The notes under the pieces are model-generated. The model was not told the origin of the DNA. It searched no databases and saw nothing but the letters and a program-made list of their open reading frames with translations. From a virus (lineage: Duplodnaviria; Caudoviricetes): a stretch of DNA of 64,000 nucleotides. The position numbers and the translations under genes are program-made. Positions 17,233 to 46,901 of this stretch are shown piece by piece. Numbering within the stretch: position 1 is the first letter of the stretch; every line of letters begins with the position of its first letter. The DNA lies in IMG/VR virus record IMGVR_UViG_3300037808_002146; one strand, 5' to 3'.

Positions 17233-17296
17233 TATTTTAACCTTCCACTAGTTATTAACGAAGAACAAGGACTCATTCCTTGCTCCTTATGTTCTT

Positions 17297-17325
17297 ATTA
17301 TACCACACCCTCAGTTTATTTGCAC
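17297..17325 (-). promoter_or_regulatory. sigma70-type promoter GTGCAA-N17-TATAAT upstream of the sigma gene
   Basis: Minus strand GTGCAA ataaactgagggtgtgg TATAAT. Confidence 0.7.
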
Positions 17326-17337
17326 GATTTTGTTTTT

Positions 17338-19173: not shown

Positions 19174-19368
19174 TTAACCTTTCAACAAACCTGGTTTTAA
19201 AGAATTTTCTACTACAAAATCAGGTACACTCTGGAGTTGCCTTCTTACCCCAGAGATAGAATTTTCTGCTATGAACAAATCGCCAAACTTGTAAGCTACT
19301 TCTTGTTCGTTTATCATATTAATTTTTCTCAAAAAAGCTTGAGATTCGCTACTTAGTACAACTTTCAT
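19174..19368 (-). CDS. hypothetical protein
   Basis: 64-aa ORF; not GroES-like. Confidence 0.6.
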   Translation of the reverse strand: MKVVLSSESQAFLRKINMINEQEVAYKFGDLFIAENSISGVRRQLQSVPDFVVENSLKPGLLKG

Positions 19369-28475: not shown

Positions 28476-29162
28476 CTATTTTCCTTGCTTTGCTTTAGAC
28501 ATAGCTTCGACTTTTGCAATTCTTTCTTCTATCCTAGACCACCTAAGTTCTTTCATCATTGCGAAAGTATAAGATCTTTTATCGCCTAGGTAATCTCGGT
28601 AATATGCGTGCTCCCAGCAATCCAAAACCACAACCGGATAGCTAGCAAAAGGAACATGCTTACTGTTTAAGTCGATTATAACATTCATATACCGATTTAA
28701 GAAAAAGTTATATACAGTCACGGCCCAACCATTACGAGAACTAAGAGCGCACGCAATAAAATCCTTTTGCCACGCATCAAACGATCCAAAATCTCTCTCC
28801 AGTCTCATGAAAGCTATTGAGTCCATGTTGATAACTGAATTTTGGTCTCCTATATTTTCGAAATAATAAGCATGCAAAAAAGAAGCGTTTAAGTTATAAA
28901 CTTCGTCTTCCTTGAGGGATCGAAGCTTAGAGTTGTTAATGTCCGCTAATTCTCTCTCGGCGGTATCTAAAAAAGCTGATACTTCATTCAATTTCTTGAC
29001 ATGATCTTCCAGGATTTGCTGGTGGCTTTTCTTAGTTTTTTCGCTTAGAAGTTCGGTAGAGATTTCATACTTCTTAGACTGCGTAACGTACGCTTCATTT
29101 AATTCGTTTTTAAGAGAATTGTTTATCTCTTTTAAAACTCGCTTTTTCATATCTTTCATCAA
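28476..29162 (-). CDS. sod: Fe/Mn superoxide dismutase family protein with N-terminal extension
   Basis: KSH, FLHAYYFENI, DFGSFDAW, LDCWEHAYYRDY. Confidence 0.88.
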   Translation of the reverse strand: MMKDMKKRVLKEINNSLKNELNEAYVTQSKKYEISTELLSEKTKKSHQQILEDHVKKLNEVSAFLDTAERELADINNSKLRSLKEDEVYNLNASFLHAYYFENIGDQNSVINMDSIAFMRLERDFGSFDAWQKDFIACALSSRNGWAVTVYNFFLNRYMNVIIDLNSKHVPFASYPVVVLDCWEHAYYRDYLGDKRSYTFAMMKELRWSRIEERIAKVEAMSKAKQGK

Positions 29163-29536
29163 TCAACCTCGTAGTTCTTTTCAAAATCGTCTTCATCAAT
29201 AGAAAATTCAGAGTCGTTCGCGTCTGGCATTTTAACTAACTCTTCTTCTTGGCCAGCTATTACATGAGATGTAGAAACTGGGGCTTGAATCCTTGGAGAT
29301 TCTGGAGTTCGAAGGGTAATTTTAATTACCCCGTCTTTGTCTTTTATCTTTTTTATCGTATATTCAAAACCAGATTTCTTATGCCTAACTTTCAAATCAG
29401 GCTCTAAGACTATTCTGCCTTTTTTATCGCTAACGGAAGTCTCTTTTAGAAGAGAGACTATTTTTAATCTATCTTCGTATTCTTTTAGTAGAAGAGCTTT
29501 TAAAAAAGTTTCTGGTCTGTTCATCTTAAACCTCAT
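29159..29536 (-). CDS. hypothetical protein (putative virion)
   Basis: LLKEYE and LLKET motifs. Confidence 0.65.
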   Translation of the reverse strand: MRFKMNRPETFLKALLLKEYEDRLKIVSLLKETSVSDKKGRIVLEPDLKVRHKKSGFEYTIKKIKDKDGVIKITLRTPESPRIQAPVSTSHVIAGQEEELVKMPDANDSEFSIDEDDFEKNYEVD

Positions 29537-29957
29537 TATTAACTAAGTATTTTCTACAAATTATTCCAGACTTATCTAGAATACCTAAACCATCGCTATC
29601 ACGATAATCTTCGGTATACACTATTTCGGAAATGCCGGCATTCACTATTGCTTTAGCGCACATTTTGCAAGGGCTTAAAGTCAAATACATGACTTTCCGC
29701 TTAGGATTATTATAGTCCATTTTTAGCAAACAGTTTATTTCTGCATGAATAAAACCAGAATGTCCGGGTACTTCAGATTCAACTTTGTTTGGACCGCCGG
29801 CATGGTTCCCGTTGTACCCAACTGATAAAACTTGTGTATTGTCAGAAGTTACTACTATAGCACCTACTTTATATCTAGGATCATACGATCTTTCGGAAAT
29901 TGAGTTTGCTACATTTGCCCAAACTTTATCCCAAGATGGCCTTGATTCATTTATCAT
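29526..29957 (-). CDS. dCMP deaminase family protein
   Basis: KVGAIVV, GYNG, HAEINC, TLSPCKMCAKAI. Confidence 0.92.
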   Translation of the reverse strand: MINESRPSWDKVWANVANSISERSYDPRYKVGAIVVTSDNTQVLSVGYNGNHAGGPNKVESEVPGHSGFIHAEINCLLKMDYNNPKRKVMYLTLSPCKMCAKAIVNAGISEIVYTEDYRDSDGLGILDKSGIICRKYLVNNEV

Positions 29958-29958
29958 A

Positions 29959-31380
29959 TTAGCCTTTTAGTAAACCAGCATTCTTTTGCCAAGTTTCAAA
30001 TAGTTTATTAGGAGTTGCGAATTTTTCGTTTAACTTCTTATGTACAAATCTAGTTATCTCGGATTTTGAAATACTCTTTTGACGAGATTCCTGAGTTTGT
30101 GCCAAAACCTGCGCGGCTAAAGCGGGGATCATTTTTTCTAAAGAGTCAAAATTCTTTTTAGCAAACCTCTTAGACTTAATCAAAACTTCTTCATGAGATG
30201 CACGCCAAGTTTTCACAGCTTTAGCGACCGCTCTCTGGACTGCAACTTTGCCTTTATCTATACCGGTAAAAATACCATCTTTCAATTCTTGACTTCTATT
30301 TTTTCTACGAAGAGTATCTTGACTTGACTTAGAAAGAGAAGACTCCCAATCTGAAAGTGCTTTGCTTACAGCATCCTTTGGTGACATTGGCTTAGACTTG
30401 ACAGCCACAGCCGCAGCTTTAATCTCTGCAGCTGGATCAGACTCTGCTTCAGGGTTTTCCGGAATGTCTTCAGGTTTCTCTTCAGATTTCTCTTCAGATT
30501 TCTCTTCAGATTTCTCTTCGCTTTTTTCGTCGGTTTCATCTCCTGATTTTTCCTCAGGAGCCTCTTTGCCTGGAGGCGGAGCTTCCTCAGCGGAGGTTTG
30601 AATTGATTTTATAGCGTCTGTTGGAACTGCAGCTTTTTCAGCTGCTTGAGAAGACTTTTGAACATCTACATCTAGACTTTTTAACTGGCCGTAAGTTAGA
30701 TTCAAGAAGTCATCTGCTAATTTTTCAACTGGCAACTCGCCAACTTTTTCAGTCCCAGGTATATCAGCTACAAATTTGGATTTGCCAAGAAGCGAACCAA
30801 GCTTTGCCATGAAACCTTTTGGCTTTGAGCCTTTAAAAGCTTTAGATATTCCAGATTTTAAATCGTCGCTACTTAATCCATGCTTTTCTAAATCTAACTG
30901 GCCTAAAACCACGTCGTCATCGATATCTTTACCACCTAGGTTTTTAGAAATTAATTTTACTGCATTAGCGAGAGTAGTGCCAGCTGTGTTTGACTTATTT
31001 TGTAAATCGATTACAGCCTGAAGTGCTCTCGCAACATCCATTTTTTTCCCAAAGAAACCTTTGATTTGAGCTGCCATGCTATCTGGATCTGCTAGGTCTA
31101 GTTTACTAGCTAAGGTATCTGCTTTCTTCAAAGAATTTTTCAAGGTATTAAAATAATCTACTAAAGAAGTTAGTTTAAGTTCTTGTGAAGCTTTCAGGTT
31201 TTGATTTACAGCAGACAGTGTTGTTTTTACTGCAACTCTTAATTTTTCTATATCTGAATCTTCAATGTCTTCCATAAGCATACCGTAAACAGAACGATTG
31301 GAAAATGAGTGTTCAAGTAACACTGAGTCGTTTACTAGCTTTAGCGCTATTTCGTATAATATTTCGGAATTTTTTTTCAT
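29959..31380 (-). CDS. putative virion protein with acidic/Pro-rich linker
   Basis: 473 aa; VLLEH and LMED motifs; EEKS repeats. Confidence 0.7.
   Translation of the reverse strand: MKKNSEILYEIALKLVNDSVLLEHSFSNRSVYGMLMEDIEDSDIEKLRVAVKTTLSAVNQNLKASQELKLTSLVDYFNTLKNSLKKADTLASKLDLADPDSMAAQIKGFFGKKMDVARALQAVIDLQNKSNTAGTTLANAVKLISKNLGGKDIDDDVVLGQLDLEKHGLSSDDLKSGISKAFKGSKPKGFMAKLGSLLGKSKFVADIPGTEKVGELPVEKLADDFLNLTYGQLKSLDVDVQKSSQAAEKAAVPTDAIKSIQTSAEEAPPPGKEAPEEKSGDETDEKSEEKSEEKSEEKSEEKPEDIPENPEAESDPAAEIKAAAVAVKSKPMSPKDAVSKALSDWESSLSKSSQDTLRRKNRSQELKDGIFTGIDKGKVAVQRAVAKAVKTWRASHEEVLIKSKRFAKKNFDSLEKMIPALAAQVLAQTQESRQKSISKSEITRFVHKKLNEKFATPNKLFETWQKNAGLLKG
30475..30520. repeat. 12-bp coding tandem repeat (EEKS units)
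   Basis: tttctcttcaga, about 3.8 copies. Confidence 0.9.
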
Positions 31381-32334: not shown

Positions 32335-32919
32335 TTACTCGTTTATGAAATGAGCAAAACATTTAGGCTGATACATTTCCGATCCCCCTACCTCTATTCT
32401 TTCATGACCTTCACCTGATATTTTTTCAGTAAAATAAGCATCTTCGCCACAACCGGAACAAACCGCGGGACATATTTGTATGTTAGTAGCCCATGGGAGC
32501 ATTTTATTCATTTCTTTATAGGGCTCCCCATTAGAAGAAAGTTGAAGACTAGAAACTAAAACGGTTTTTCCAGATTTATAAATATCTATCAAAACATCGG
32601 AAACCCCATCGATCATGAAAGCCTCGTCTAAAGCAACAACGTCTACTTCATGTTGCTTGTTATAGGCGTTAAAATATCGATATAAATCAAAGCTAGAGTT
32701 TACCCTAATCATTTTATTAAAATTATCCTTACCGCACTTCCACTCTATGCCAGAATGCGTTACTACCGAATCTTCAGAATACCTTACGTCGACTCTTGGC
32801 TTAAAAAGCAAGACATTCTTATTTTGATACTTGTATCTTTCCAAAGCGGAAAGCAACCTAGTAGTTTTTCCACCAAACATAGGACCAGTAAATATTTCAA
32901 ATCTAGGGTTATTCTTCAT
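32335..32919 (-). CDS. tdk: thymidine kinase (TK1 type)
   Basis: GPMFGGKTTRLL, LLFKP, DEAF, CSGCG zinc site, IEVGGSEMYQPKC. Confidence 0.92.
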   Translation of the reverse strand: MKNNPRFEIFTGPMFGGKTTRLLSALERYKYQNKNVLLFKPRVDVRYSEDSVVTHSGIEWKCGKDNFNKMIRVNSSFDLYRYFNAYNKQHEVDVVALDEAFMIDGVSDVLIDIYKSGKTVLVSSLQLSSNGEPYKEMNKMLPWATNIQICPAVCSGCGEDAYFTEKISGEGHERIEVGGSEMYQPKCFAHFINE

Positions 32920-33898
32920 TAGTACTCCACCAAGCTATAGTTTTATCCAAACCCTCCCTTAAATCTACTTTACTAGTAAAACCTAAGATTTCTCTAGATT
33001 TAGAAATTTCAGCTCTCGTATGCCTAACATCCCCAACTCTCTCTGGGGCATTTATTATCTTTATTTCAAACCTCTCCCTAAGCAAATCAAGTATATCATT
33101 ATTACTATAACTTTTGCCAGTTCCTATATTAAAAATATCGCCTGAAAATTTTGCTTTGTTTAGCGAAGCGATAATATTAGAATCTACAATATCACCAACA
33201 TATACCATATCACGAGTTTGTTCACCGTCGCCGTCGCTTCTGAGTGGCTGTAACCTTTTAATTTTATCCATCCAAGCTGATATTGCTGTAGAATATGGGC
33301 TGTCGCCTAACTGCCCTGGTCCATAAGCATTAAAGTACCTTAAGCAAACGCTGTCTAAGTCGTAAAGCTTCGAGTAAAGAGAACAATAATCTTCGACTAT
33401 TCTTTTTTGAAGTGCATATGGAGATTCAGGGTTAGTCTCTCCGGATTCTATAGATGGAAAATTATCTAAAGAGTTACCATAAATCGCAGATGAGCTACTA
33501 AACACAAACCTTTTAACGTTATCGATGCAAGCTGTCATAAGCAAGACTGATTTTGTAACATTCTGTTCTGTTGTTACAACCGGATTTTTTACAGAATACT
33601 CAACCCTTGGTAATGCTGCTAAGTGGAAAATTATATCGTATTTTTTTTCCGCAATCCTCGATAAAATCTGAGGAGCTGCAAAATCTCCCGTGATTACCAA
33701 AGTTTTATTAGAGTCTTTAGAAGAATCATATCTAGCTAGTAGTCCTGGAGTTATAACCCTAATATCTATAGAAGAGATGTTATCTATGTCTCCATTGGAG
33801 AGATCATCTACAACGTCTACTCTCCACCCTAGATTCACCAGTTTTTTAGTTAGGTTAGAACCAATAAAACCACACCCGCCGGTAACTAAAGCTCTCAT
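32909..33898 (-). CDS. NAD-dependent nucleotide-sugar epimerase/dehydratase
   Basis: TGGCGFIGS, FHLAA, SSSSAIYG, SPYALQK, LRYFNAYGP, TRDMVYV. Confidence 0.93.
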   Translation of the reverse strand: MRALVTGGCGFIGSNLTKKLVNLGWRVDVVDDLSNGDIDNISSIDIRVITPGLLARYDSSKDSNKTLVITGDFAAPQILSRIAEKKYDIIFHLAALPRVEYSVKNPVVTTEQNVTKSVLLMTACIDNVKRFVFSSSSAIYGNSLDNFPSIESGETNPESPYALQKRIVEDYCSLYSKLYDLDSVCLRYFNAYGPGQLGDSPYSTAISAWMDKIKRLQPLRSDGDGEQTRDMVYVGDIVDSNIIASLNKAKFSGDIFNIGTGKSYSNNDILDLLRERFEIKIINAPERVGDVRHTRAEISKSREILGFTSKVDLREGLDKTIAWWSTNEE

Positions 33899-35052
33899 AG
33901 TTCTCCCGAAGTTGTCTTTATGTTATCTTGTCTATAATTGGAAAAACCAGAATCTTCTAACTCTCCATGGAGATATTTTATTACTTCGTATGTCATATCT
34001 CTCGCGGTGCAAGTTGGAACATTTTGAGCTACATCATTTAATCTCTTGGTTTGAAGATTAAAGTCAGATGGAAGTCCCATTAGGTGCATTATCTCTCTAT
34101 GACTCATCCCTCGGGGTTGGGTAGGGTGCATTATCATTTGCAAAGTTCTTCCAACTATTGCGTTAGTACATGAATTATAAAAAGCTGGAGAATGATCTAA
34201 AAAACTTTTCCCCATAGACAGCTTGTTTTTGATGTGTTCAAATTTTCTAACTTCTTTGTGTTCTGGGTTGTGTGTTGTAAGCCACTCTAAACATTCATCA
34301 ATCAATTCGTTTCGTACGATAAATTGGTGAATTGAGTGAGCTGGACCAGAACCAAACTCGCCGATAAAGTCTTTATGCGAAAACCCATATTTTTCAAGCA
34401 AAAAAGTGTAAGAAGGGAATTTTTCAAAAATATTGTTTATATTGTATAAGTCTTGTTGTTTTGAACTGCCAGGAATTTTTCCTAAATAATCAATCAAATT
34501 ATCGTGCTCCCTATCATACCAATTCATAATCGGAGCATTTTTCGAATCCCAAAAAAAATAAAATGTTCGCAGCCTCTTTTGAGGAATCCCATGCTTGAAT
34601 GTCGAAGTTCTATATATTGAAAAAGAGTATCCATTATCTTCAGCGATTTGCTTAAGCTGCTCTCTAACGCTATTTCCTGATTTTGTATAAAGGGCTGGAG
34701 CATTTTCTCCCCAGTAAACCTTTGGCCTAAGTTGCTCTAAAACTAGTTTCGATGTTTTCATCATCCAAACATTTTGGCTATCTCTAGTTGACCGATCTTG
34801 ACTGGTATTCAGTTGACTCAATCCCGCACAAGGGCAAACTGAGTTGACAAAATCTAAATTATCTTCTGGCAAAATAGATTCGTCTAAGTCGATTCTCCTA
34901 ACATTAGGCCAGTAGTTAACTAAGTGGTTTTCGTTTTGCTCAAAAGCCTTAAAGCTCAAATGAAACTTGGGTAAGTTTCCAGTTGCTTGGCTACATCCTA
35001 TCGCAGATCCGCCTATTAACGGGATCATAGTAGCCCAAGATATATCACTCAT
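33895..35052 (-). CDS. C5-cytosine DNA methyltransferase-like protein
   Basis: Motif IV PCAGLS, motif VI GENAP, motif VIII PQKRLR; motif I is atypical (IPLIGG). Confidence 0.75.
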   Translation of the reverse strand: MSDISWATMIPLIGGSAIGCSQATGNLPKFHLSFKAFEQNENHLVNYWPNVRRIDLDESILPEDNLDFVNSVCPCAGLSQLNTSQDRSTRDSQNVWMMKTSKLVLEQLRPKVYWGENAPALYTKSGNSVREQLKQIAEDNGYSFSIYRTSTFKHGIPQKRLRTFYFFWDSKNAPIMNWYDREHDNLIDYLGKIPGSSKQQDLYNINNIFEKFPSYTFLLEKYGFSHKDFIGEFGSGPAHSIHQFIVRNELIDECLEWLTTHNPEHKEVRKFEHIKNKLSMGKSFLDHSPAFYNSCTNAIVGRTLQMIMHPTQPRGMSHREIMHLMGLPSDFNLQTKRLNDVAQNVPTCTARDMTYEVIKYLHGELEDSGFSNYRQDNIKTTSGEL

Positions 35053-36446
35053 TTTTTTCTCCTAACCCTCTTTTGCTTGTAACAAGCAAACTCTCTACGA
35101 GCTTTCTTCTCGAAGAAACATAACGATTGATTTGTAACTTGTTTAATACCAACAGCTGGGATTTTTCCTTGTTCGATTATCTTGAGGTAGTCTTCAAAAA
35201 CTCTTTCGCTTTGAAAGAGGTGGGTGAGCATCTCTTTGTCATTTGTGAATTTGTTGTTGTCTTTTCCAGCCTTTAGAATATAGTCAAACATTTCTGGCAA
35301 AACGTTGTCAGCGTTAAACTCTCTATCGATAAAATCAAAACTAGAATCCCTGTATTTTTGTTGCTCTAACGGGTTGTTAGCAATTGATATTAGTTTATCC
35401 GCTGTTTCTCCCAAGTCGTCTCGAGAAGACCAAACAGCTAGATAGTCGTTATCGATGTACTTACTCCCGTTGGAATCAGTGTTATGTTCTCCATAGTGTT
35501 TATCAAAAACAGGAATAGTTCCACATCCTATAATTTCGATTTGTGTATACTCCATCCTATCGCCATAGTTGTGTGGTTCTTTTGGTAGCCGGTAAAAAGA
35601 GCAGCCAAATAAAGAGGTGGAGATTAGATCCATACCGTCAGCATAATCATACGGGCCAAAAGTGGGAACTCCATCAAGATCCCAGTCATAATTTTCAAAC
35701 TTCAAATTATAGATAGAATTTGGGTGATCTATAATATCGAACTTAGCCCCAATAGAGCGTTCAATACCGTGAAGAGCTAAACGAAAAGATGGATCTTTTT
35801 CTTTCATTATAGGATATAAATCTAAAACGCGGCGAGGATCCTTCATAGAAGTCCAGCGACCTACGTAAGTTAGTTTTCGTTCCTTTTCATTTAAGCTAAA
35901 TTTATCCCTATAATTTTTCTTTAATTCAGATAAATCTACCCACATTTTGAATCTCTTTGTTCTTTCCCCTAAGACTTTGCTGGGCAAATATGAGGAAAAC
36001 TCTTTTGAAAAGAAAGTTTTTTCCGAGAAATTATAAACAATATCACAGTAATTTAGAATAGGGATAATCATCGGAATAGCATCGATATTAGCTTTTTTAA
36101 TTTCGTGCATCATTCCAACCAAGACTGGTTTTTTAATCTTTTTAACTAAACCCTCATAAAAAGACATCACTGCTTGAGGAGAATGCTTAGAGGAGGGATA
36201 AGAGTTGAGAATAACTGTATCATATTCGCGGTTTAGCTTCTCAACCAGAGAGGGGATCTCTGTATGCTTAAACTCAATTGGCTCAATTGGCATAGAGTGC
36301 CCTTTAGCTCTAGCAAAGCTTCGTCCTTTCATAAAAAATATATCAAATTTGACATCATTCCTTTGCGCCCAAGTAGCAATCTCAACTGCTCCTCTTTGAA
36401 CGCCACAGCCATCAAGCCCTTTGCCAAAAATCATAGCAATTTTCAT
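35049..36446 (-). CDS. GT-B glycosyltransferase resembling T4 DNA alpha-glucosyltransferase
   Basis: GKGLDGCGV, LNSYP, VGRWTSMKD, GIERS, MEYTQIEIIGCGTIPVF parallel T4 AGT segments as I recall them. Confidence 0.75.
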   Translation of the reverse strand: MKIAMIFGKGLDGCGVQRGAVEIATWAQRNDVKFDIFFMKGRSFARAKGHSMPIEPIEFKHTEIPSLVEKLNREYDTVILNSYPSSKHSPQAVMSFYEGLVKKIKKPVLVGMMHEIKKANIDAIPMIIPILNYCDIVYNFSEKTFFSKEFSSYLPSKVLGERTKRFKMWVDLSELKKNYRDKFSLNEKERKLTYVGRWTSMKDPRRVLDLYPIMKEKDPSFRLALHGIERSIGAKFDIIDHPNSIYNLKFENYDWDLDGVPTFGPYDYADGMDLISTSLFGCSFYRLPKEPHNYGDRMEYTQIEIIGCGTIPVFDKHYGEHNTDSNGSKYIDNDYLAVWSSRDDLGETADKLISIANNPLEQQKYRDSSFDFIDREFNADNVLPEMFDYILKAGKDNNKFTNDKEMLTHLFQSERVFEDYLKIIEQGKIPAVGIKQVTNQSLCFFEKKARREFACYKQKRVRRKK

Positions 36447-36898
36447 TTATTTTTTCTCCCCGTTTTTAAGACTCTTTCCCTCAACTGCGTAGTAGAGAAA
36501 GAATGCCTCCTATTATTATAATGGATAGGACATAAGTCAACGCCTGTATGGTTTGTGCCTTTGTACTCTTCTCCAACTACCCTAATGTCTGGGTTTATTG
36601 TCAAGATTACATCAACTAAATCTTTTTCAGAACCAAATGGAATTATTTCATCTACATATTTGCATGCAGCTAACTGCAAATATCTTTCCATAATACTTTG
36701 AATTGGCTTATTCTTTATTTCTGGACGATCGTTTGTAGGATCTGTCAAGAGTCCTACGATCAAGTAATCACAAAGCGATTTACTTTCCTGCAGCATCACA
36801 ACATGTCCAGCATGGAATAAGTCGAAAGTAGAACACGTAAAACCAACAATCGGATCTCTTCCCAAGCTTTCTGCTAGTTTCTTTTTATCTAAAAACAA
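36443..36898 (-). CDS. cytidylyltransferase (TagD/RfaE-like HxGH family)
   Basis: TFDLFHAGH, LIVGL, KYVDEII, GEEY, FSTTQLR. Confidence 0.88.
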   Translation of the reverse strand: MFLDKKKLAESLGRDPIVGFTCSTFDLFHAGHVVMLQESKSLCDYLIVGLLTDPTNDRPEIKNKPIQSIMERYLQLAACKYVDEIIPFGSEKDLVDVILTINPDIRVVGEEYKGTNHTGVDLCPIHYNNRRHSFSTTQLRERVLKTGRKNK

Positions 36899-37973
36899 TT
36901 TTTACTTCCTTGAAAATATCTTGAATTCTTTTTCTTACAAGGCTTTTTTGGTTTTCGGGCTTATACTTTAGCATTCTGATATAATGAATCATCTCGCACA
37001 ATAAGAAATACCTAGAAAAATTAGGTTTAAATAACCCAAGTAGATGACTAAAAAGATCCTCTTTATCAACTTTAGCTTCAAAACCAGAAAAACTTTCTTC
37101 GTAAGAAGAGTGTAAAGATTGATATATCTTTCCAACGTCCATAACCCAAGAACTATATACATTTCCTGGACAATTAGGGTCTATGAGGTATACTTTTTCA
37201 CCTCTAACGATGCAATTTTCAAAAGTAAGATCTCCATGAGAAAAGCTAGCTTCGATATTCATAAAATCAGCAACTTGATCGCTTTCTAAGAGTTTAATAA
37301 TATCACTTTCGTTTCTTACAGCGTTTAAAGACATATGATCTTTAACACGATCAACCATAGTTTGCCAATTGCTGTTAGTAACTTTTATATCACTAAACCT
37401 TGTTAGCAAATCTACCAAATAATCTATGTGCTCTTTGGTGCATACATCATTTAAGCTAACTCCGTCCAAGAACTCCATGTCCAAAGTATCTCCATAATAA
37501 GTATTAACTTTTGGAACATGACATAAACTACCAGCTGAATTATACCAGTGTGCTTGGTCTTTAGCGTTGCTAGCTTTTTTGATGATTCTATCACCAACTT
37601 TCTCTACAGAGCCTCCCGATCCACCTTTTAAGACTTCATAGTCTAAATCCATAAATTCCTCTGGGCGGATTGCTTTATCGTCGATGTAGTATACCCCGAT
37701 TGGTTTTCCAAACATCAAACTGTGATACTTCACGCTGTGTTTCTCCATCCAAGACTCTAAAACTGGTCGACGAAGCTGGTTTATTAAGTCTAAGTCTCCG
37801 CTACATGAAACCTGTCCTCGAGCGGTAAAATATATAATTTTCCAACCCGATTCATACATCTTGTTAAGTTTGTTGATAATTTTAGTATGAGGAACTGCAT
37901 TTTCATAATCACGATTCCGATGTGTAGATATCGTGTCATCAACATCGACGACTAGAGTTCGTGTTTCTACCAT
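36885..37973 (-). CDS. HAD phosphatase (capsule-biosynthesis type) fused to an APH/choline-kinase-like domain
   Basis: VDVDDT, YFTARG, FGKP, YYIDDKA; then HGDLTFEN and YLIDPN; start revised to MVETRTL (TAATG overlap). Confidence 0.8.
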   Translation of the reverse strand: MVETRTLVVDVDDTISTHRNRDYENAVPHTKIINKLNKMYESGWKIIYFTARGQVSCSGDLDLINQLRRPVLESWMEKHSVKYHSLMFGKPIGVYYIDDKAIRPEEFMDLDYEVLKGGSGGSVEKVGDRIIKKASNAKDQAHWYNSAGSLCHVPKVNTYYGDTLDMEFLDGVSLNDVCTKEHIDYLVDLLTRFSDIKVTNSNWQTMVDRVKDHMSLNAVRNESDIIKLLESDQVADFMNIEASFSHGDLTFENCIVRGEKVYLIDPNCPGNVYSSWVMDVGKIYQSLHSSYEESFSGFEAKVDKEDLFSHLLGLFKPNFSRYFLLCEMIHYIRMLKYKPENQKSLVRKRIQDIFKEVKIVFR

Positions 37974-38410
37974 TAAATTACTCCTGTACTCCCAAAACCA
38001 CCTTCGCCTCTTTGGGAATTTACACAAAATAAATCCTCAATGCAAACTTCCTCGATAGAATCGTAAAAAACTGGAACTAAAATCATTTGTACTAGTTTTT
38101 CACCAGCACAAATAGTTTCTGCTTTGTTTCCAAAATTGTAAACATGGAGATGGATTTCACCTTGATAGTCTTCATCTACGATACATGCGCCAACGGATAA
38201 ACTTCTCTTTAAAGCAACCCCGCTTTTATTAAAAACTATTAAAGCAAACCCATTAGGTACGTTCGCTTTTACGCCACTAGGAATGCAAGCTGAGTTTCCT
38301 GGTTCAACGACAAAATTTTCAAAATCGTTAGGGACAAAGAAATCTATACCGGCAGATTTTTCAGTTCCCCTAATTGGGGTTTTTACATCTTTAATTTTAG
38401 AAATCTTCAC
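37973..38410 (-). CDS. dut: trimeric dUTPase
   Basis: SAGIDF, NKSGVA, IVDEDYQGEI, KLVQMI, RGEGGFGSTG; probable GTG start at 38410. Confidence 0.92.
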   Translation of the reverse strand: MKISKIKDVKTPIRGTEKSAGIDFFVPNDFENFVVEPGNSACIPSGVKANVPNGFALIVFNKSGVALKRSLSVGACIVDEDYQGEIHLHVYNFGNKAETICAGEKLVQMILVPVFYDSIEEVCIEDLFCVNSQRGEGGFGSTGVI

Positions 38411-38685
38411 AGTTTTTCCTCTTTTATAAAATTGTGCCAAGCGCCTAAATAGGCAACAGCATCTAACAAATTGTCATCTTTGAAATTATAAGATTGGCGG
38501 CTTAGTTTGAGGGCAACAAGTGATATATACATATCATGAGCTGTAATATCCTTTCCGGACATGCCTCTAGCGATACTAGCAGCTCTTTGCATCCCTTCAC
38601 CAAAAGGTCCATACTCTCTTTCTTTTTCTTCAGATCTTTCGTTGACGATTTGATTTGCTTGCTTTAAGATATTGTCTTTATTCAT
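38407..38685 (-). CDS. small all-helical protein (DUF6378-like)
   Basis: ILKQANQIVNERS..YG...LKLSRQ...DNLLDAVAY; start revised to MNKDNILK. Confidence 0.6.
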   Translation of the reverse strand: MNKDNILKQANQIVNERSEEKEREYGPFGEGMQRAASIARGMSGKDITAHDMYISLVALKLSRQSYNFKDDNLLDAVAYLGAWHNFIKEEKL

Positions 38686-39508
38686 CACTAAAAATTTCTC
38701 CACTGCAGTTTTTAACATAATCGTATATTTCAGCTTTTTCAACCTCTGCGATAGGAAAAGAAAAATTTTCATTAATCAACTTCCAGTTAACGTTACTGTT
38801 CAATCTACAAGTATCTAATCCTTTGTCAACATTAAAGTCACTACTATTTATACTTTCAATCATTTTGTAATGCTTTTCATAAACATGCAAGCTACCAGCG
38901 TAGTGAAAGTAACTCCCTAGTTCTAAGCTCATGCCAGTTTCGTTTAGTTCATTCAACATAAGCTGCTGAAATAGCGAAAAGGTGAAAACATCGTTACACA
39001 AACCGAAAATTAAATCGTTAGATCTCATATTAACGCCTAGGTGGAGTTTATTATCCCTAACGAAAAACTGAATATAGTGCGTGCAAGGATAGTCTTTTGA
39101 ATTCTTGAACTTATGATAAGGTTGATTTATCACAAAAGTTGCACGGCGAGTATCTCGATCAATTATAATCTCGTTTTTCACCCAGTTCCATTGCGGTTTT
39201 AGATAGACTCCATAATTGGATTCAACTTCGCAAAATTGATCTGAAATCATTTTCCATATTTTAGCTAATTTCCCGATATTTAAGGAAGAAGAATTAGCAG
39301 ACAAGTACCACATCCACTCTGCTATGGCATAATTTTTGTTAAATTTTCTCTCTGGTAGCGTAACGTTAATACGCGTAGGATCTGAAATTTCAAAGCTTTG
39401 GAATATCACTTCCTTTTGTTTGGAGTTTCTTGCATTCACTTCAGGAGAATCTAGTAAAACAGAGCTATAGTGTTTTAGTAGATGGTTTATAGAGTTAAAT
39501 TTATTCAT
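38678..39508 (-). CDS. thymidylate synthase superfamily, dCMP hydroxymethylase-like
   Basis: DYPCTHYIQF...MRSNDLIFGLCND; the residue 31 positions after the catalytic Cys is Asp; GSLHVYE. Confidence 0.8.
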   Translation of the reverse strand: MNKFNSINHLLKHYSSVLLDSPEVNARNSKQKEVIFQSFEISDPTRINVTLPERKFNKNYAIAEWMWYLSANSSSLNIGKLAKIWKMISDQFCEVESNYGVYLKPQWNWVKNEIIIDRDTRRATFVINQPYHKFKNSKDYPCTHYIQFFVRDNKLHLGVNMRSNDLIFGLCNDVFTFSLFQQLMLNELNETGMSLELGSYFHYAGSLHVYEKHYKMIESINSSDFNVDKGLDTCRLNSNVNWKLINENFSFPIAEVEKAEIYDYVKNCSGEIFSDE

Positions 39509-39514: not shown

Positions 39515-42500
39515 TTATACTTCAAAAATCTTAATTTTTCTAAATTGAGTTGAAAAGCCAAAATCAGACTTATCAAGTTCGGCAACACAAAGTGAGTAAG
39601 GATTCAAAATAGAATCTTCTTTCGTACCCCAACAGAATACCCTATTTTTTTCCCCATTAGATCCTATAGCATCTAAAAGAAAGTAAGGCTTATTGTTTTT
39701 AGTTTTCTTTTTATTAACCTTAGTAGCTACTAGCCAATAAAGATTTTTTTGATTCCACTCTTCTATAGGGAGGATAGATAACTCTTCAAACCTGCTAGAT
39801 AACTTTTCAGGAATTAAATTACCAACATTTATAGTTCCAAGTAAAGATTCTTCAAACTCCATATTTTCTTTAATGCTCCAGTCTTCACTCGGGTAATTTA
39901 GAGAAACTTCGTTCAAATTGTCTCTTCCTTGAAAAGGATTCTTTTTAGTGCTCTTTCTTAATGCTGGCCAATTTTCGCTAACACATTCGTAGAATTGCTT
40001 GTAAGATTCAAAATAACCTTGCCAATCTAGGGAATCCAGTGCTCTAATCTTCAGGAGAGATTCGAGAGTCTTTTTATTTAATTTTGAGTGTTTCCACTTG
40101 CCATCTTCATTCCAGAGCAGATCATCAATATTTTCATAAGGTCGGTTGTTAAGTATCTCTTCAATAGCTGCCTCGCCTATGCCTTTACAGGAAAAGAAAG
40201 ATGGCATCAAAACCTTATCGTCGACTGGTGTCCAATTTTTTCCAGCTTTATTAAGGTCAATATTTGTTGTCGTGTATCCCAACTTTTTAACTTCACTCAA
40301 TGCTTTGGAAAGCTTGTTTGGATTAGACGAAACTGCTTCGAGGTAAGCGGTTATCCATTCAGCCTCGTAGTAAGTCATTAGCCAAGCGCAATAGTACGAA
40401 TTTATAGCATAAGAAACAGCATGTGACTTATTGAAACCGTAGCCAGCAAAATACAAAATCTTCTCGTAGAGATCTTCGGCGACGTGCTTTTGAACTCCAT
40501 TAGAAATAGATCCGGCAAGGAACTTATCTTTAAGATCTCGAGCTTTTTCGATATTTTCATTTCCAGAACCAACAGGCTTCATCATCTTACGCATTGCGTT
40601 ACATTCGTCTTTCGGGATACCCGCGACGACATGACATAAGTTCATGACTTGCTCTTGAAAGATTATACAACCATAAGTTTCTTTCAAACATTCTTCAATA
40701 AGCGGATGGCCATAAACTACACTTTCTGGATTCTTTTTTGCTCCAATATAAAGTTTATCTACCTTAGCACTCAGCGGGCCAGGACGGTATATAGACGTCA
40801 GAGTTGCGATATCTATTATTGATTCTGGTTTAGCACGCTTAAAGAGGGCTTGAGCGCCCCTCTGCGTGCACTGGAATATAGCAGCCCACTTTCCAGAATG
40901 ATAGACATTTTTATAAACTTTTTGATCGTTAAAATCAATTTCTTTAGTTGACATATTGACATCGAACCATTTTTTCACTTGTTGAAAATCTGGATTTTCA
41001 ATACCCTCTTTCTTAAGAACCAGTCTAATAGTTTGCTCAATTATTCTCAAAGTTTCTAATCCAAGCAAATCAAACTTAATCCACCCAAACTCTTCTAAAT
41101 GCTTATAGTTCATACCTTCAACCCACGGAGTTTGAACTTCTCCACGAGCTAAAATTACAGGCATCCTCTCGGCAATTCTTTCTGAAATTATAACACCACC
41201 AGCGTGGCGACCGAGAGCTTTGTTTTGCTTGAATAAAACCTTTAGAGGATCAAGTATTTCTGGATACTTTTCTAAATAGTTCTTCAAAGATTCTGAGTAC
41301 TTTAAAGCTTCATCAATATGAATATCGAAAGAATCTTCTGATTCTGCATCGTTCTTCCGTCCTCTCTTTACATCTACTTCCAATGGAGCTAAAGCTTTGT
41401 TTGCTTCTTCGAATGGGACTCTATAAAACCTCGAAACGTCCTTAATCAATGACTTCAACTTAAAGGTGTTATAATTCGAAATTGGTACAACATTTGATTC
41501 TCCAAAGTTATCCCTTAATAAAGATATTAACTCGTCACGGTCTCCTACATCAGAATCGATGTCTGGCATTTCGTTTCTCTCTGGAGATAAAAATCTTTCA
41601 AAAAGCAAACCGTTAGAAACTGGATCAACATCCGTGATTCCTAAAGCGTAATTCACCAAACTACCCGCGCCAGAGCCTCTGCCCGGGCCGATGAGCATTT
41701 TTTCTCGCGCAATATCGAGGATAGCTTTCATCGTTAGAAAATATTCGGAAAAATTCTTGCTTTTTATAACCACGAACTCTTCTCTCAATCTCTCAATATA
41801 GATAGGGTTTTCATGTAGACCTCGATCTATCAAGCCTTTCTTACAAAAATCTAAAAGAGCTTGAGTTGCTGTTTTTCCTTTAGGGATTACATAAGATGGT
41901 AATTTCATGCTTCGATCTGGGTTGATGTCTCCAATCTCGTCGTGGACTATGTTGTATGGACGTTCAATAGCTTCGCAAATTATTTGATCGTCGTAAAAAT
42001 CCATGTCAGAAGTTGTACTTAAGTAAGAATCCCACACTTGCTCTGCGTTTTTTGGATAAAGTTCGCAAGAAAGATCGCTTTGAGATTTAGGTAAAGAGTC
42101 TGGATCAAAGTCTCTGAAGTTAAGCCAGCCAAGCTTTTTGTATATTTCTCTTTCCCTCCAGTGTTCCGGGCGAGCGTAATGTGAATCTGTCGTAACTACC
42201 AACTTGTCTGTTAAACCTTGAGATTTTGCAAATTCAATTATAGATCTATTGACCAAGTGCTGAGCCGGAAGCTTGTTAAACTGTAACTCTAACATTACGT
42301 CGTCTATTCCGACGGAATCTACCAAGCCTTGATATGCATTTCCTACGCCATTCATAACTTTGCTTCGAAAAGAGTTATCATCTAAGAGTGTATGACTAAG
42401 ATCGTTAAACTCTACTTGTTGGGCATGCCTAAAAACTTCATAAGCGATTGGGCCGCCTATACATGCAGTAGAAACCATCAAATGACCTCCTTCGGCGGCT

Positions 42501-43096
42501 TCTTTTAACATCTTATAGTCAATCCTAGGAAATCTATAGAAACCTTCTAGGTAACCTTTAGAGACTAAGTTAAAAAGCCTAGACAAGCCTTCTGATGTTT
42601 TTGGAAGGACAACCAAGTGGTGACGCCTCTTGACAGGATCATAAAACTTTGCTGATTTTGATTCTTCCTCGTTTTCAATAGTCAAACTTCCTTCGTCCGT
42701 AGAGAGTTCTACCGTTTCATCGTCTCCATCTACTTTGGCGAACAGTGGAGTTCTAATTCTCTCTCTTTGTTCTCTAAGCTTTAGAATAGACTCTTTGTCG
42801 CCTTTCTTTGCAGCTTTAGCTAATTCATAATCCAGATTCCAAATATCTAGATTTGGGTGAACATACATTTCACATCCGGGGACAAACTTAAAATTACCTC
42901 CACGCTTTTTAATTTTCTCTGCATGCAAGAAAGCGTGAGCAAAACTGTTCATGTGACCATGATTAGTGAGACACCAGCTATCCATCCCGTTTTCTAAAAC
43001 AAAATCTATGTGTTCTTGTGGATATCCCAAGCCATCGAAGGTTGAAAAACCATCATGTGCATGGAGGGAGGTAAACTTTTTTGGAACAATTTTCAT
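39515..43096 (-). CDS. dnaE: DNA polymerase III alpha subunit (DnaE, family C)
   Basis: PHP LHAHDGFS..DG, GPGRGSGAGSLV, MPDIDSD, GRHAGG, KFDLLGL, YGFNKSHA. Confidence 0.96.
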   Translation of the reverse strand: MKIVPKKFTSLHAHDGFSTFDGLGYPQEHIDFVLENGMDSWCLTNHGHMNSFAHAFLHAEKIKKRGGNFKFVPGCEMYVHPNLDIWNLDYELAKAAKKGDKESILKLREQRERIRTPLFAKVDGDDETVELSTDEGSLTIENEEESKSAKFYDPVKRRHHLVVLPKTSEGLSRLFNLVSKGYLEGFYRFPRIDYKMLKEAAEGGHLMVSTACIGGPIAYEVFRHAQQVEFNDLSHTLLDDNSFRSKVMNGVGNAYQGLVDSVGIDDVMLELQFNKLPAQHLVNRSIIEFAKSQGLTDKLVVTTDSHYARPEHWREREIYKKLGWLNFRDFDPDSLPKSQSDLSCELYPKNAEQVWDSYLSTTSDMDFYDDQIICEAIERPYNIVHDEIGDINPDRSMKLPSYVIPKGKTATQALLDFCKKGLIDRGLHENPIYIERLREEFVVIKSKNFSEYFLTMKAILDIAREKMLIGPGRGSGAGSLVNYALGITDVDPVSNGLLFERFLSPERNEMPDIDSDVGDRDELISLLRDNFGESNVVPISNYNTFKLKSLIKDVSRFYRVPFEEANKALAPLEVDVKRGRKNDAESEDSFDIHIDEALKYSESLKNYLEKYPEILDPLKVLFKQNKALGRHAGGVIISERIAERMPVILARGEVQTPWVEGMNYKHLEEFGWIKFDLLGLETLRIIEQTIRLVLKKEGIENPDFQQVKKWFDVNMSTKEIDFNDQKVYKNVYHSGKWAAIFQCTQRGAQALFKRAKPESIIDIATLTSIYRPGPLSAKVDKLYIGAKKNPESVVYGHPLIEECLKETYGCIIFQEQVMNLCHVVAGIPKDECNAMRKMMKPVGSGNENIEKARDLKDKFLAGSISNGVQKHVAEDLYEKILYFAGYGFNKSHAVSYAINSYYCAWLMTYYEAEWITAYLEAVSSNPNKLSKALSEVKKLGYTTTNIDLNKAGKNWTPVDDKVLMPSFFSCKGIGEAAIEEILNNRPYENIDDLLWNEDGKWKHSKLNKKTLESLLKIRALDSLDWQGYFESYKQFYECVSENWPALRKSTKKNPFQGRDNLNEVSLNYPSEDWSIKENMEFEESLLGTINVGNLIPEKLSSRFEELSILPIEEWNQKNLYWLVATKVNKKKTKNNKPYFLLDAIGSNGEKNRVFCWGTKEDSILNPYSLCVAELDKSDFGFSTQFRKIKIFEV

Positions 43097-44123: not shown

Positions 44124-44930
44124 TCACCTTTGAATTTCTGGTACCCAGTGTGTTGTTCTCCCATCGGGAGTTTTATCTTTAATAACTTCATTCCCGTCTG
44201 GATCTTGCTTTTGGTTATACACTAAAAATCTAGAACTGAAATTTCCTACTTCTCCATAAAAATCTTTGTAAGATTTTATTGTAGCTCCGCCTGTTTTGAA
44301 AGATTCTCTCATTACCGACTTTATAGTCTTGTTAAGAATCTGTAAATTTGTATCTGAAATGTCTCTTACTTTTCGAAAGGGGCTAATCCTAGCTAGATAA
44401 AGAGATTCTGATTTAATATAGTTTCCAACGCCAGCAATTACCGATTGATCCATTAAAGCTTTAGTAATGTTTTGTTCTTCTTTTTTTCTTAATGATAGAA
44501 CAAAATCATCGTTGCTAACATCTTCCGATAGCATGTCTGGCCCGAAAGAAGATAGCTTAGCGGATAATTGCTTTGGATCCTGAGAGAGTTTAATAGTTCC
44601 AAAATTTCTCATATCGTTAAAATAGACGCGTTTCCCAGTATCGAAAGTGAAAGACAGCCTTGTATGTTTAGATTCTTTACTCTGCCAAGCCCCCGACATA
44701 CCTAAAGTTGACCACATGCTACTTTTATCTTCAAAAATTACATATATAAATTTTCCATGAACGCCTACGCCTTTTACTTTAGAAGGCAATTTTTCCTTAA
44801 AACTATTTAGATTAGGTAGTTCTTTTTTCAAATACCTTCCTGAAACTACTTCAACCGCAGTTAAAGTTTCCCCACCAATATAGTCTCCTAAAAAAAGGGC
44901 GTACCTCCTGCATTCGGGTCCTTCAGGCAT
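44124..44930 (-). CDS. mutM: Fpg/Nei DNA glycosylase (zincless finger)
   Basis: N-terminal MPEGPE, HGKF, LGMSG, DMRNFG, H2TH MDQSVIAGVGNYIKSESL; C-terminal GRTTHW without Cys. Confidence 0.9.
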   Translation of the reverse strand: MPEGPECRRYALFLGDYIGGETLTAVEVVSGRYLKKELPNLNSFKEKLPSKVKGVGVHGKFIYVIFEDKSSMWSTLGMSGAWQSKESKHTRLSFTFDTGKRVYFNDMRNFGTIKLSQDPKQLSAKLSSFGPDMLSEDVSNDDFVLSLRKKEEQNITKALMDQSVIAGVGNYIKSESLYLARISPFRKVRDISDTNLQILNKTIKSVMRESFKTGGATIKSYKDFYGEVGNFSSRFLVYNQKQDPDGNEVIKDKTPDGRTTHWVPEIQR

Positions 44931-45548: not shown

Positions 45549-46286
45549 CTATGGAGAAATTTGAGATACGACACTTATAATTTGCTGGAGTATCGAAGAA
45601 TTTGATCCTAGATTTTCAACTTCTACTTTATCTTCAAAGAGGGATAGGTTTTTTAATTTAGATAGTTTCTTTTTTTCGCTAACTTTTAATTTTTTTAAAA
45701 GCTTTATAGAAAATTTTAATAAATTAGAGCTTCTTTTAGTAATAGGAACTATCGAGCAATGGGCCGAAATGAAAAAATTTAAACAAAAAAACCTTGTGAA
45801 CTCGATGTCTGATATTAAATCTAAAAAGCTATCGCTCTCAATACCTAACAAAATCGTGTTCGAATCTTTTATTTCGAATTTTCGTATAGATATTCCCAAA
45901 CTTAAGAGTTGATCGCACAAAGACTTTATTGAAGAATTTAGTCTAGCGTTAATATTAACTGCGCCTATATTTTCGTATTCAGTTAACTTACTTTCTTCTT
46001 TCAAAATATATCTTAAGGGAATAGTTCCGCTGGCTTCGCTCGTAGTAGAGGCTAAATTTTCGCTTAAGGATTTAACTGACTTTGAATTTGGAGAACAGTA
46101 ACAAACGAGGCCATTAACAGGATCGTTATAAACTTTGAAAGGAAAAGATTCATGATTTTCTTCAAAACTTGGATTTTCTATAATATAAGTGAATTCTCCA
46201 TTCTCTTCTTTTCGTTCTAACCTTTGAGTATAAGTCCTATAGACTGCAGAATCATTTAATAGATTTTCAAAGTAAGTAACCCACAT
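45549..46286 (-). CDS. hypothetical protein
   Basis: ORF track. Confidence 0.6.
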   Translation of the reverse strand: MWVTYFENLLNDSAVYRTYTQRLERKEENGEFTYIIENPSFEENHESFPFKVYNDPVNGLVCYCSPNSKSVKSLSENLASTTSEASGTIPLRYILKEESKLTEYENIGAVNINARLNSSIKSLCDQLLSLGISIRKFEIKDSNTILLGIESDSFLDLISDIEFTRFFCLNFFISAHCSIVPITKRSSNLLKFSIKLLKKLKVSEKKKLSKLKNLSLFEDKVEVENLGSNSSILQQIISVVSQISP

Positions 46287-46888
46287 TATTCAAGCTCTAT
46301 CTCGATATTTACGTCTACTGTAATCTTCGGTACTCTTAACTGATTAGCTAATCCGTGCTTCTTAGCTTCATCTGCATCTAGAAACCAATCTGCATGCTTT
46401 TTCTTATCGACTAACTTCATGAAGTAGTCATCCTTTTTGCCGCAATTTCTCGCCATCATTGTGTAGATAGTCGTATTGAGTCGATCAGCTTCTTTTGCAC
46501 CAGCTTTGAGTTCCTCAACCTTACCGAAGTCCATGCTAGCAACATCATGAATCATAACCGTTGCATTTGGGTCCATAAATCTTAAACCCTCTTCCCCAAA
46601 AGAGAATAGAATTGCCCCACAAGACATTGCTTTCCCTTCGACAATTGTCGCAATCGGCAACTCTGAATGCTTTATCGCAGATATCATCGCCATTAAGCTA
46701 TAAACTTGACCCCCATATGAGTCGATCACAACTGGTATTACTTTTTGACCAGTGTTATGAGCTCTTGCAATTTCTTGATCAAATTTCTTAGCAGCTTCTT
46801 CGTCGAATTTGTTAACTCTTACGATAACAGGATTGTGACGCATCTCTACTTCTTTTATCAGGGGCGATATTTTTGTTGTCCACTTCAA
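46286..46888 (-). CDS. clpP: ClpP-like protease subunit
   Basis: IDSYGG, GKAMSCG (catalytic Ser), PNATVMIHD (His), DWFLDADEA..GL; probable TTG start after the AAGGAG RBS. Confidence 0.88.
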   Translation of the reverse strand: MKWTTKISPLIKEVEMRHNPVIVRVNKFDEEAAKKFDQEIARAHNTGQKVIPVVIDSYGGQVYSLMAMISAIKHSELPIATIVEGKAMSCGAILFSFGEEGLRFMDPNATVMIHDVASMDFGKVEELKAGAKEADRLNTTIYTMMARNCGKKDDYFMKLVDKKKHADWFLDADEAKKHGLANQLRVPKITVDVNIEIELE

Positions 46889-46901
46889 TTTTCTTTTCTC
46901 C

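Follow-up and report, generated by a model that had tools for sequence, protein, structure and literature searches.

A probable cytosine glycosylation system with its own predicted sugar-donor pathway in a marine jumbo phage

A candidate cytosine-hypermodification cluster downstream of dnaE

IMG/VR virus record IMGVR_UViG_3300037808_002146 is a 64,000-nucleotide stretch of tailed-phage DNA (Caudoviricetes; the whole stretch is called the window here) that carries, directly after a gene for a DnaE-type replicative polymerase, a string of genes that most likely forms a real system for cytosine glycosylation, complete with a donor pathway of its own. We infer the sugar and the product on DNA from sequence features and from analogy with characterised systems. 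In our judgement, the chance is somewhat better than even that the string is a pre-replicative cytosine-hypermodification operon, in which an enzyme like T4 gp42 would supply 5-hydroxymethylcytosine (5hmC), a dedicated cassette would make a nucleoside diphosphate (NDP)-heptose, and a glycosyltransferase of the T4 AGT family would transfer the sugar to DNA.

Gene families were assigned by profile matches to Pfam, PHROGs and NCBIfam. The cluster comprised eight minus-strand genes across positions 32909-39508, each overlapping or abutting its neighbour, and started 6 nt past the polymerase gene (39515-43096, minus strand), which encoded PHP, DNA_pol3_alpha, finger and HHH_6 domains. Reading away from dnaE, the first genes encoded a ThyA-like, predicted dCMP 5-hydroxymethylase (38678-39508; Pfam Thymidylat_synt, E 4e-15), a DUF6378 protein whose gene overlapped it (38407-38718; PF19905, E 6e-10) and a trimeric dUTPase (37973-38440; Pfam dUTPase, E 2e-21, with TIGR00576 at 101.6 bits, just under its 102.55-bit cut-off). 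These were followed by a 362-aa fusion of a HAD phosphatase and an APH/choline-kinase-fold sugar kinase (36885-37973; TIGR01689, E 2e-23), which had 1 nt in common with the dUTPase stop codon, and by a small HIGH-type, cytidylyltransferase-like nucleotidyltransferase (36443-36898; CTP_transf_like PF01467, E 9e-16), which overlapped the fusion gene by 14 nt. Three genes with 4-nt overlaps completed the cluster: a 465-aa glycosyltransferase of the T4 alpha-glucosyltransferase family (GT72-like; 35049-36446; Pfam AGT, E 1e-9; phrog_2888, E 4e-98), a divergent C5-cytosine-methyltransferase-fold protein (33895-35052; PF00145 DNA_methylase, E 2e-16) and a GalE-like NAD-dependent epimerase of the short-chain dehydrogenase/reductase (SDR) type (32909-33898; PF01370 Epimerase, E 2e-47). 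From there the string ran into a thymidine kinase gene.

Independent metagenome contigs, two of them 201.6 and 209 kb long, carried the same gene string, which makes it a real conserved phage locus and no chance arrangement. The sequence of the stretch, or part of it, occurred in seawater or marine runs of 20 studies, and the source phage is a marine, DnaE-using jumbo phage of at least 200 kb. The original prediction, made from the letters of the window, had described eight translationally coupled genes directly after dnaE in a jumbo phage unlike T4. All eight were present as first noted, with coordinates, overlaps, family matches and recurrence in agreement, and the jumbo assignment held on the DnaE domains and the lengths of the two large contigs. 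Scans of the window for promoters and terminators performed no better than on shuffled sequence.

The hydroxymethylase-like enzyme and pyrimidine-pool genes

The best solved relative of the ThyA homologue was T4 gp42 (1b49, E 2e-20), followed by the CMP hydroxymethylase MilA, with true thymidylate synthases far lower. In the phmmer alignment to 1b49, Glu64, Asp139, Cys142, Asp165 and Asp173 corresponded to T4 Glu60, Asp145, Cys148, Asp171 and Asp179, respectively. The catalytic cysteine (Cys142) was present, and Asp173 occupied the position of dCMP/cytosine specificity (E. coli N177); these gp42-type active-site features, Cys plus Asp, were shared by 44 of 44 scorable ThyA homologues beside related cassettes. 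Asp139 falls at the E. coli L143 position, which is said to correlate with a hydroxymethyl as opposed to a methyl product (PMC13326640), and Asp165, within an RSND motif, at E. coli D169. Change of the latter to Asn (D169N) is the signature of 5-hydroxy-dCMP synthases (PMC13326640). Neither the window ThyA nor any of the 44 scorable homologues from the loci retrieved had Asn at that position; with Asp165 kept, the signature is absent, and on that ground we rejected 5-hydroxycytosine chemistry by a 5-hydroxy-dCMP synthase of the RB69 gp48 type. Because enzymes with Asp at the N177 position may also be dCMP methylases, we infer a hydroxymethyl product, with good support, from these residues.

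The order ThyA-DUF6378-dUTPase was kept in close relatives of the window and in loci L011 and L013, and L001 had the DUF6378-dUTPase pair only. The DUF6378 protein was highly conserved: its relatives were 66-77% identical in one alignment and up to 99% identical in the hit listing. A role for this protein as a MazG-like dCTPase was unsupported: its AlphaFold2 (AF2) model reached a mean predicted confidence (pLDDT) of 70, Foldseek returned no significant match (mouse and human DCTPP1 at E 4-10), and an hhalign comparison with the L003 and L007 PRA-PH proteins gave a probability of 0.6%. Two further genes would bear on the pyrimidine pool, namely the thymidine kinase (32335-32919, minus strand; PF00265, E 7e-35), translationally coupled as the last gene through an 11-nt overlap with the epimerase gene, and a nearby dCMP deaminase (29526-29957, minus strand; phrog_174, E 2e-43); ThyA and dCMP deaminase genes were adjacent in many related loci. 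Inside this nucleotide-metabolism block, between a DHH phosphoesterase and the dCMP deaminase, lay a gene for a 473-aa protein (29959-31380, minus strand) with no Pfam, PHROG or atlas match, which was retained in near-identical contigs.

The donor cassette

The HAD-kinase fusion had no Pfam match, and Bud32-type kinase models matched it weakly. Its HAD part matched 1xpj (E 2e-19) and 9iqw (E 6e-15), in addition to TIGR01689. Among 34 homologues, HAD residues D10, D12, K90, D98 and D99 and kinase residues K132, H246-G247-D248, N253 and D265 were invariant. An AF2 model of the fusion (pLDDT 91) placed the HAD part on 1xpj, and Foldseek matches at E 1e-7 to 1e-9 comprised fructosamine-3-kinase, choline/ethanolamine kinase, LicA, methylthioribose kinase, APH and maltokinase; of these, methylthioribose kinase and maltokinase are anomeric sugar kinases. 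By its motifs and modelled fold, the protein joins an APH-fold kinase and a HAD phosphatase with intact catalytic residues in one chain. Fusion of the kinase to a phosphatase points to a route from a distal sugar phosphate through a 1,omega-bisphosphate and a 1-phosphate to an NDP-sugar.

The nucleotidyltransferase was about equally near to HldE domain II and to TagD. It scored 71.5 bits with rfaE_dom_II and 64.3 bits with TagD, both under the NCBIfam cut-offs, and matched TagD 1coz at E 1.5e-17 and HldC 5x9q at E 1e-9 in the PDB. Its C-terminal RRHSFSTT motif places an Arg five residues ahead of STT, and Arg at this position is reported to permit CDP- or UDP-heptose synthesis (PMC11461863). 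Since the enzyme is TagD-like and has this Arg, CDP is a possible donor nucleotide.

That the cluster would encode its own donor-activation cassette, as first proposed, was supported by the intact HAD and kinase motifs and by the PF01467 transferase directly downstream. The donor itself had been envisaged as a CDP-polyol or CDP-sugar, or as an epimerised NDP-sugar. An NDP-sugar, possibly CDP-linked, was retained, and a CDP-polyol is unlikely because a fused kinase-phosphatase speaks for the bisphosphate route: CDP-glycerol and CDP-ribitol need no fused anomeric kinase and distal phosphatase, and the partner here is a sugar-type GT-B enzyme. The TagD-likeness of the transferase is the point that remains in favour of the polyol. 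No novelty attaches to the combination of kinase, phosphatase and nucleotidyltransferase, which the original prediction had taken as a sign of an unusual activated donor, since a homologous set has been studied in E. coli. The HAD-APH enzyme, CTP-transferase and glycosyltransferase of metagenomic contig 53 were all needed there for the formation of 5-heptosyl-mC (449 u) and di-heptosyl-mC (641 u), that is, mono- and di-heptosylated 5hmC (10.1101/2023.12.21.572611). The annotation keys of that study for the fusion and transferase, TIGR01689 and TIGR02199 (10.1101/2023.12.21.572611), were also the best NCBIfam matches of the two window proteins.

Glycosyltransferase and epimerase

Residues 1-392 of the glycosyltransferase aligned end to end with residues 2-401 of T4 AGT (1xv5, E 4e-19), and the Pfam AGT score was 38 bits against a gathering cut-off of 25. 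The nucleotide-sugar binding blocks GRxxxxK and EYTxxE...CGTIPVF were conserved, and the protein carried a basic C-terminal extension of ~70 aa ending in KQKRVRRKK. This alignment, together with the gp42-type residues of the ThyA homologue, upheld the initial call of a cytosine-hypermodification cluster with a gp42-type hydroxymethylase and a T4-AGT-family transferase. From its context, the acceptor would be 5hmC in duplex DNA; the donor is probably not UDP-glucose, because the cluster has a dedicated donor cassette.

The best PDB matches of the epimerase were 6wjb, for which the deposition gives no more than the NAD-dependent epimerase/dehydratase family, and the UDP-glucose 4-epimerase 4zrm (167-168 bits), followed at 129-143 bits by WbgU and WbpP, which are UDP-HexNAc 4-epimerases. 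ADP-heptose 6-epimerase 3sxp reached 86 bits only, and all NCBIfam models stayed under their cut-offs. Its position was variable: it followed the methyltransferase-like gene in close relatives, lay 7 kb away in L001 and came after the dUTPase gene in L013. Unrelated SDR epimerases stood between the nucleotidyltransferase and glycosyltransferase genes in L025 and L033. The first assessment had counted the epimerase as a member of the donor pathway; a GalE-like epimerase is indeed there, but it is not a constant part of the cassette, though unrelated SDRs accompany the cassette in other lineages, and it is best read as an accessory part that would tailor the donor. In locus L017 (66-1500), a second epimerase and nucleotidyltransferase pair, missing from the window, was situated upstream of DnaE; the HAD-kinase of that locus was 84% identical to that of the window.

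Distribution of the cassette in viral genomes

Scanning IMG/VR with an alignment of the fusion protein recovered 352 relatives; 80 loci plus others were analysed and 53 non-redundant viral loci were counted. The nucleotidyltransferase gene was directly downstream of the HAD-kinase gene in all 53, and a recognised DNA glycosyltransferase stood beside the pair in 39. The gene after the pair encoded an AGT-like glycosyltransferase in 13 loci, a member of a second GT-B family in 17, a TET-associated glycosyltransferase (TAGT, PF20691) in nine and no recognised glycosyltransferase in 14. Between the AGT-like enzymes and the second GT-B family, hhalign detected no relation (probability 9%). A gp42-type ThyA gene was present in 24 of 30 GT-B loci and never in TAGT loci. 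Locus L066, where the window's fusion enzyme has a full-length homologue, combined PolB, a canonical C5-methyltransferase (185 bits), Tet_JBP, HAD-kinase, nucleotidyltransferase and a 426-aa GT-B enzyme, the same layout as contig 53. As the pair is joined both to ThyA loci and to methyltransferase/TET loci, it appears to be a mobile donor module serving pre- and post-replicative 5hmC systems alike, and its sharing between these two kinds of 5hmC system is strong contextual evidence that the product goes onto DNA.

On two contigs with a phage portal gene (L006 and L008, 8001-13600), the HAD-kinase/transferase pair was followed by a PF20691 glycosyltransferase, two unknown proteins, ParB-like proteins and a radical-SAM enzyme, an arrangement that may represent a different hypermodification.

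The C5-methyltransferase-fold protein

Across 18 diverse homologues of the methyltransferase-like protein, the motifs PLxGGS (I, atypical), NE (II), CPCAGLS (IV), GENAP (VI), PQxRxRTFYF (VIII), RE..H.MG.P (IX) and AQNVP (X) were invariant. Motif I reads (I/V)PL(I/V)GGS throughout and not the canonical FxGxGG, and Glu41 of motif II was kept. PF00145 aligned from profile position 49 only, at 61 bits, compared with 185 bits for the TET-partnered methyltransferase of L066, to which the window protein was 21% identical. The gene was directly downstream of the glycosyltransferase gene in 18 of 26 assessable GT-B loci, where it followed two unrelated glycosyltransferase families, and in none of nine TAGT loci; it was missing from the other eight GT-B loci. 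The family exceeded 859 clusters and was represented in marine samples, both in Tara Oceans sources and in cultured marine phages, with members near ThyA in S-TIM5-type cyanophages and Pseudoalteromonas phage XG4. In L013, the gene kept company with ThyA, DUF6378, dUTPase and epimerase genes in a locus with no recognised glycosyltransferase.

With low confidence, our best guess is that the protein acts on DNA after replication, as an S-adenosylmethionine-dependent methylase of residual cytosines that escape replacement; in DNA with complete replacement, such an enzyme would find no substrate. The methyltransferase-like gene is retained even in T4-like relatives with a PRA-PH protein of the MazG clan, possibly a dCTPase, and this weakens the idea. 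More speculatively, and in our view improbable, the protein could use its complete set of C6-attack residues and rewired cofactor loop on 5hmC or glycosyl-5hmC, by flipping the base for the glycosyltransferase or exchanging the C5 substituent, and so create an undescribed cytosine adduct; the same doubtful scenario would, separately, have the GalE-like step yield an NDP-heptose epimer unknown in bacteria.

The family also occurred in L012 (4733-12361), beside genes for an epimerase, a GT-B enzyme, a sugar aminotransferase, an acetyltransferase and a PhyH-type 2-oxoglutarate (2OG) oxygenase, in surroundings that showed no ThyA. This locus could follow a post-replicative route via a non-TET oxygenase.

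Proposed pathway and alternative explanations

In the pathway that we propose, the gp42-like ThyA homologue would convert dCMP to 5-hydroxymethyl-dCMP (hm-dCMP), while dUTPase, dCMP deaminase and thymidine kinase would manage the pyrimidine pool, and the resulting hm-dCTP would be put into DNA by the phage DnaE replisome. For the donor, the APH-fold kinase is predicted to take a host sugar phosphate, most likely D-glycero-D-manno-heptose 7-phosphate, and phosphorylate its anomeric hydroxyl, after which the HAD domain would strip the distal phosphate and the small nucleotidyltransferase would make the NDP-sugar, whose nucleotide may be CDP. The GalE-like epimerase probably alters one stereocentre of this NDP-sugar. 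The AGT-family enzyme would then move the sugar onto 5hmC in duplex DNA, giving a heptosyl-type 5-(glycosyloxymethyl)cytosine that would shield the DNA from host nucleases. Heptose, as an NDP-heptose that is possibly CDP-linked, is the best-supported guess for the sugar because it is the sole experimentally determined product for this type of cassette; by analogy, we put its chance at about even. An undescribed glycosyl-5hmC, which the original prediction had raised, is possible but is not indicated.

Several observations weigh against this pathway or its heptose donor. Regarding the base, some ThyA-family enzymes with Asp in place of N177 are proven 5-methyl-dCMP synthases (10.1101/2024.12.05.627091), a Walker-A search of the unannotated open reading frames of the window found no hm-dCMP kinase, and no gp56-type dCTPase or gp1 kinase was recognisable in the window; the partial relatives, too, yielded neither a dCTPase nor an hm-dCMP kinase. 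As to the donor, neither GmhA nor another SIS isomerase turned up in searches of the window and three partial relatives, which is no proof of absence, and the phage would consequently depend on a host sugar phosphate. The nucleotidyltransferase matched TagD slightly better than HldC, the HAD domain stands just as close to phosphatases of the arabinose-1,5-bisphosphate type, and the epimerase was GalE-like rather than HldD-like. The window HAD-kinase was ~32% identical to that of L066, and the two glycosyltransferases had no detectable kinship; given this identity and the unrelated transferase, the sugar specificity may differ.

A number of these points fit a pathway of the same logic that uses another sugar, which we consider rather unlikely, although credible. 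Arabinose 5-phosphate, ribose 5-phosphate or a hexose 6-phosphate would be converted to the 1-phosphate and then to a CDP- or UDP-linked pentose or hexose, 4-epimerised by the GalE-like enzyme and placed on 5hmC. The HAD relatives 1xpj and 9iqw are the matches reported for phage arabinose-1,5-bisphosphate phosphatases, the same HAD domain occurs in hundreds of arabinosylating Straboviridae, and the epimerase falls among 4-epimerases of UDP-hexoses and UDP-HexNAcs; the missing phage GmhA in the partial relatives and the distance from the cassette of the contig 53 type, with its glycosyltransferase of another family, point the same way. Arabinose systems, however, employ a different, MurU-type nucleotidyltransferase fused to the kinase, and the PF01467-type transferase with the HAD-APH fusion gave heptose experimentally, although E. 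coli is far richer in hexose phosphates. In a further alternative, the ThyA homologue would be a dCMP methylase (Xp12-like) or otherwise no supplier of 5hmC, with the acceptor made after replication by, for example, the methyltransferase-fold protein and an unrecognised oxygenase. To the proven methylases among its homologues, this explanation can add the conserved C5-methyltransferase-fold gene of the cluster and the association of that family in L012 with a PhyH-type oxygenase and sugar genes. We regard it as very unlikely, since the closest solved relative is T4 gp42, Asp139 matches T4 Asp145 at the product-correlated position, and the methyltransferase-like protein is missing from eight of the 26 assessable GT-B loci, where ThyA is usually present. 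Tet_JBP, moreover, was detected neither in the larger window genes scanned with Pfam nor in a 143-kb relative; it was also not found in the three partial relatives searched, where the TET model was silent in control genomes too, so that this last result is no proof of absence.

GT-B and NDP-heptose enzymes ordinarily act in the making of surface glycans. In the 2023 metagenome survey, most phage glycosyltransferase contigs were without a base-modification neighbour (10.1101/2023.12.21.572611). The cassette, glycosyltransferase and epimerase might accordingly glycosylate proteins of the virion or precursors of the host envelope, or use up a lipopolysaccharide precursor of the host, alongside a ThyA block devoted to ordinary nucleotide metabolism. 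Slighter still are the prospects of this explanation, because the glycosyltransferase is a full-length homologue of the T4 DNA alpha-glucosyltransferase and translational coupling ties the genes to the hydroxymethylase block. Across lineages, the cassette was joined to three kinds of DNA-type glycosyltransferase, always near a ThyA with the Asp or a TET/methyltransferase pair and near replication genes.

Other genes in the window

Near the DnaE gene, positions 44124-44930 (minus strand) encoded a full-length Fpg/Nei-type DNA glycosylase with three Pfam domains, which was also present in L013, the locus of another DnaE phage; such a base-excision enzyme is unexpected in a phage predicted to carry hypermodified cytosine. 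A 385-aa match to family-A DNA polymerases (55410-56567, minus strand) occurred in this genome that also encodes DnaE, and there were two separate 5'-3' exonuclease/FEN genes (19349-20176 and 50807-51766). The window had many host-like auxiliary genes; those at 13558-19171 and 46286-46939 (minus strand) encoded a GMP reductase/IMPDH-family enzyme, peptide deformylase, a sigma-70 factor, GroEL and ClpP. Others encoded a protein that ends in an Fe/Mn superoxide dismutase C-terminal domain (28476-29162) and a PAP2-domain protein (4643-6202).

Comparison with known systems

DNA hypermodification sets which restriction and CRISPR systems a phage evades, and its enzymes are a source of tools for epigenetic sequencing. 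The literature already covers the components and the logic of the window's cluster, which is therefore no categorically new system; the 2023 survey, for instance, noted GT-B/ThyS contigs with APH, epimerase and methyltransferase genes (10.1101/2023.12.21.572611). With T4, the cluster shares a gp42-type hydroxymethylase with the same catalytic residues, a full-length AGT homologue, dCMP deaminase and thymidine kinase. T4, however, draws on host UDP-glucose, needs no donor genes, has no C5-methyltransferase-fold protein and replicates with a family-B polymerase.

The RB69-type route uses analogous kinase, phosphatase and nucleotidyltransferase logic for UDP-arabinose, with an APH-fold kinase, a 1xpj-type HAD and a MurU-type transferase (PMC13326640). 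In the arabinosyl-5-hydroxycytosine systems of RB69, DLP3 and HY126 (AfhE/AfhF), this donor logic likewise stands beside a ThyA homologue and GT-B enzymes, and the HADs share 1xpj as a relative. Those phages combine a D169N ThyA producing 5-hydroxy-dCMP with a fusion of kinase and MurU-type transferase, a separate phosphatase and an encoded arabinose-5-phosphate isomerase, whereas the window retains D169, fuses phosphatase to kinase, has a TagD/HldC-like transferase and yielded no isomerase. The canonical ADP-heptose route resembles the proposed one in its steps (C1 kinase, C7 phosphatase, nucleotidyl transfer and epimerisation), and the window transferase matches rfaE domain II, though below cut-off. 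We rejected the canonical enzymes themselves, as the kinase is of the APH fold rather than PfkB, the HAD falls in the TIGR01689 group and not with GmhB, the epimerase is GalE-like and not HldD-like, and GmhA was not found in the window or the partial relatives.

Among individual phages, Bacillus phage G (gp306-gp319) has two AGT-like glycosyltransferases, an NTP-transferase, a HAD and a ThyA homologue, and its glycosyltransferase gene gave a 66.5%-identical DNA match over 329 bases. Pseudoalteromonas phage vB_Psh_XG4 (L095, 100-6580) combines a ThyA with the Asp, a HAD, an AfhE-like transferase-kinase, a GT-B enzyme and a methyltransferase-fold protein of the same family, 33% identical to that of the window. 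The donor cassettes of both are of other types, their sequence similarity to the window is low, and our literature search found no published DNA chemistry for phage G or XG4. Cultured but unannotated, XG4 is a tractable model for the association of ThyA, glycosyltransferase and methyltransferase-like genes. The comparison exposes a recurrent partnership of gp42-type enzymes and DNA glycosyltransferases with a remodelled C5-methyltransferase fold.

Closest in its donor cassette is contig 53, compared here by description with L066 as stand-in sequence: both systems have the bifunctional HAD-APH enzyme and PF01467 transferase followed by a GT-B DNA enzyme. Contig 53 obtains its 5hmC after replication from a canonical C5-methyltransferase and TET, whereas the window would do so before replication through the gp42-like ThyA; the transferase of contig 53 is GT4-like (429 aa) and that of the window T4-AGT-like (465 aa), with a GalE-like epimerase and a divergent methyltransferase-fold protein as additional parts. 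The heptose-type cassette, tested so far only with TET-made 5hmC from an anonymous contig, thus appears to be attached also to T4-style pre-replicative hydroxymethylation in abundant marine phages. In the window this takes the form of an uncharacterised combination, in which a gp42-type hydroxymethylase, a heptose-type cassette, an AGT-family glycosyltransferase, a GalE-like epimerase and a remodelled C5-methyltransferase fold are brought together in a DnaE jumbo phage.

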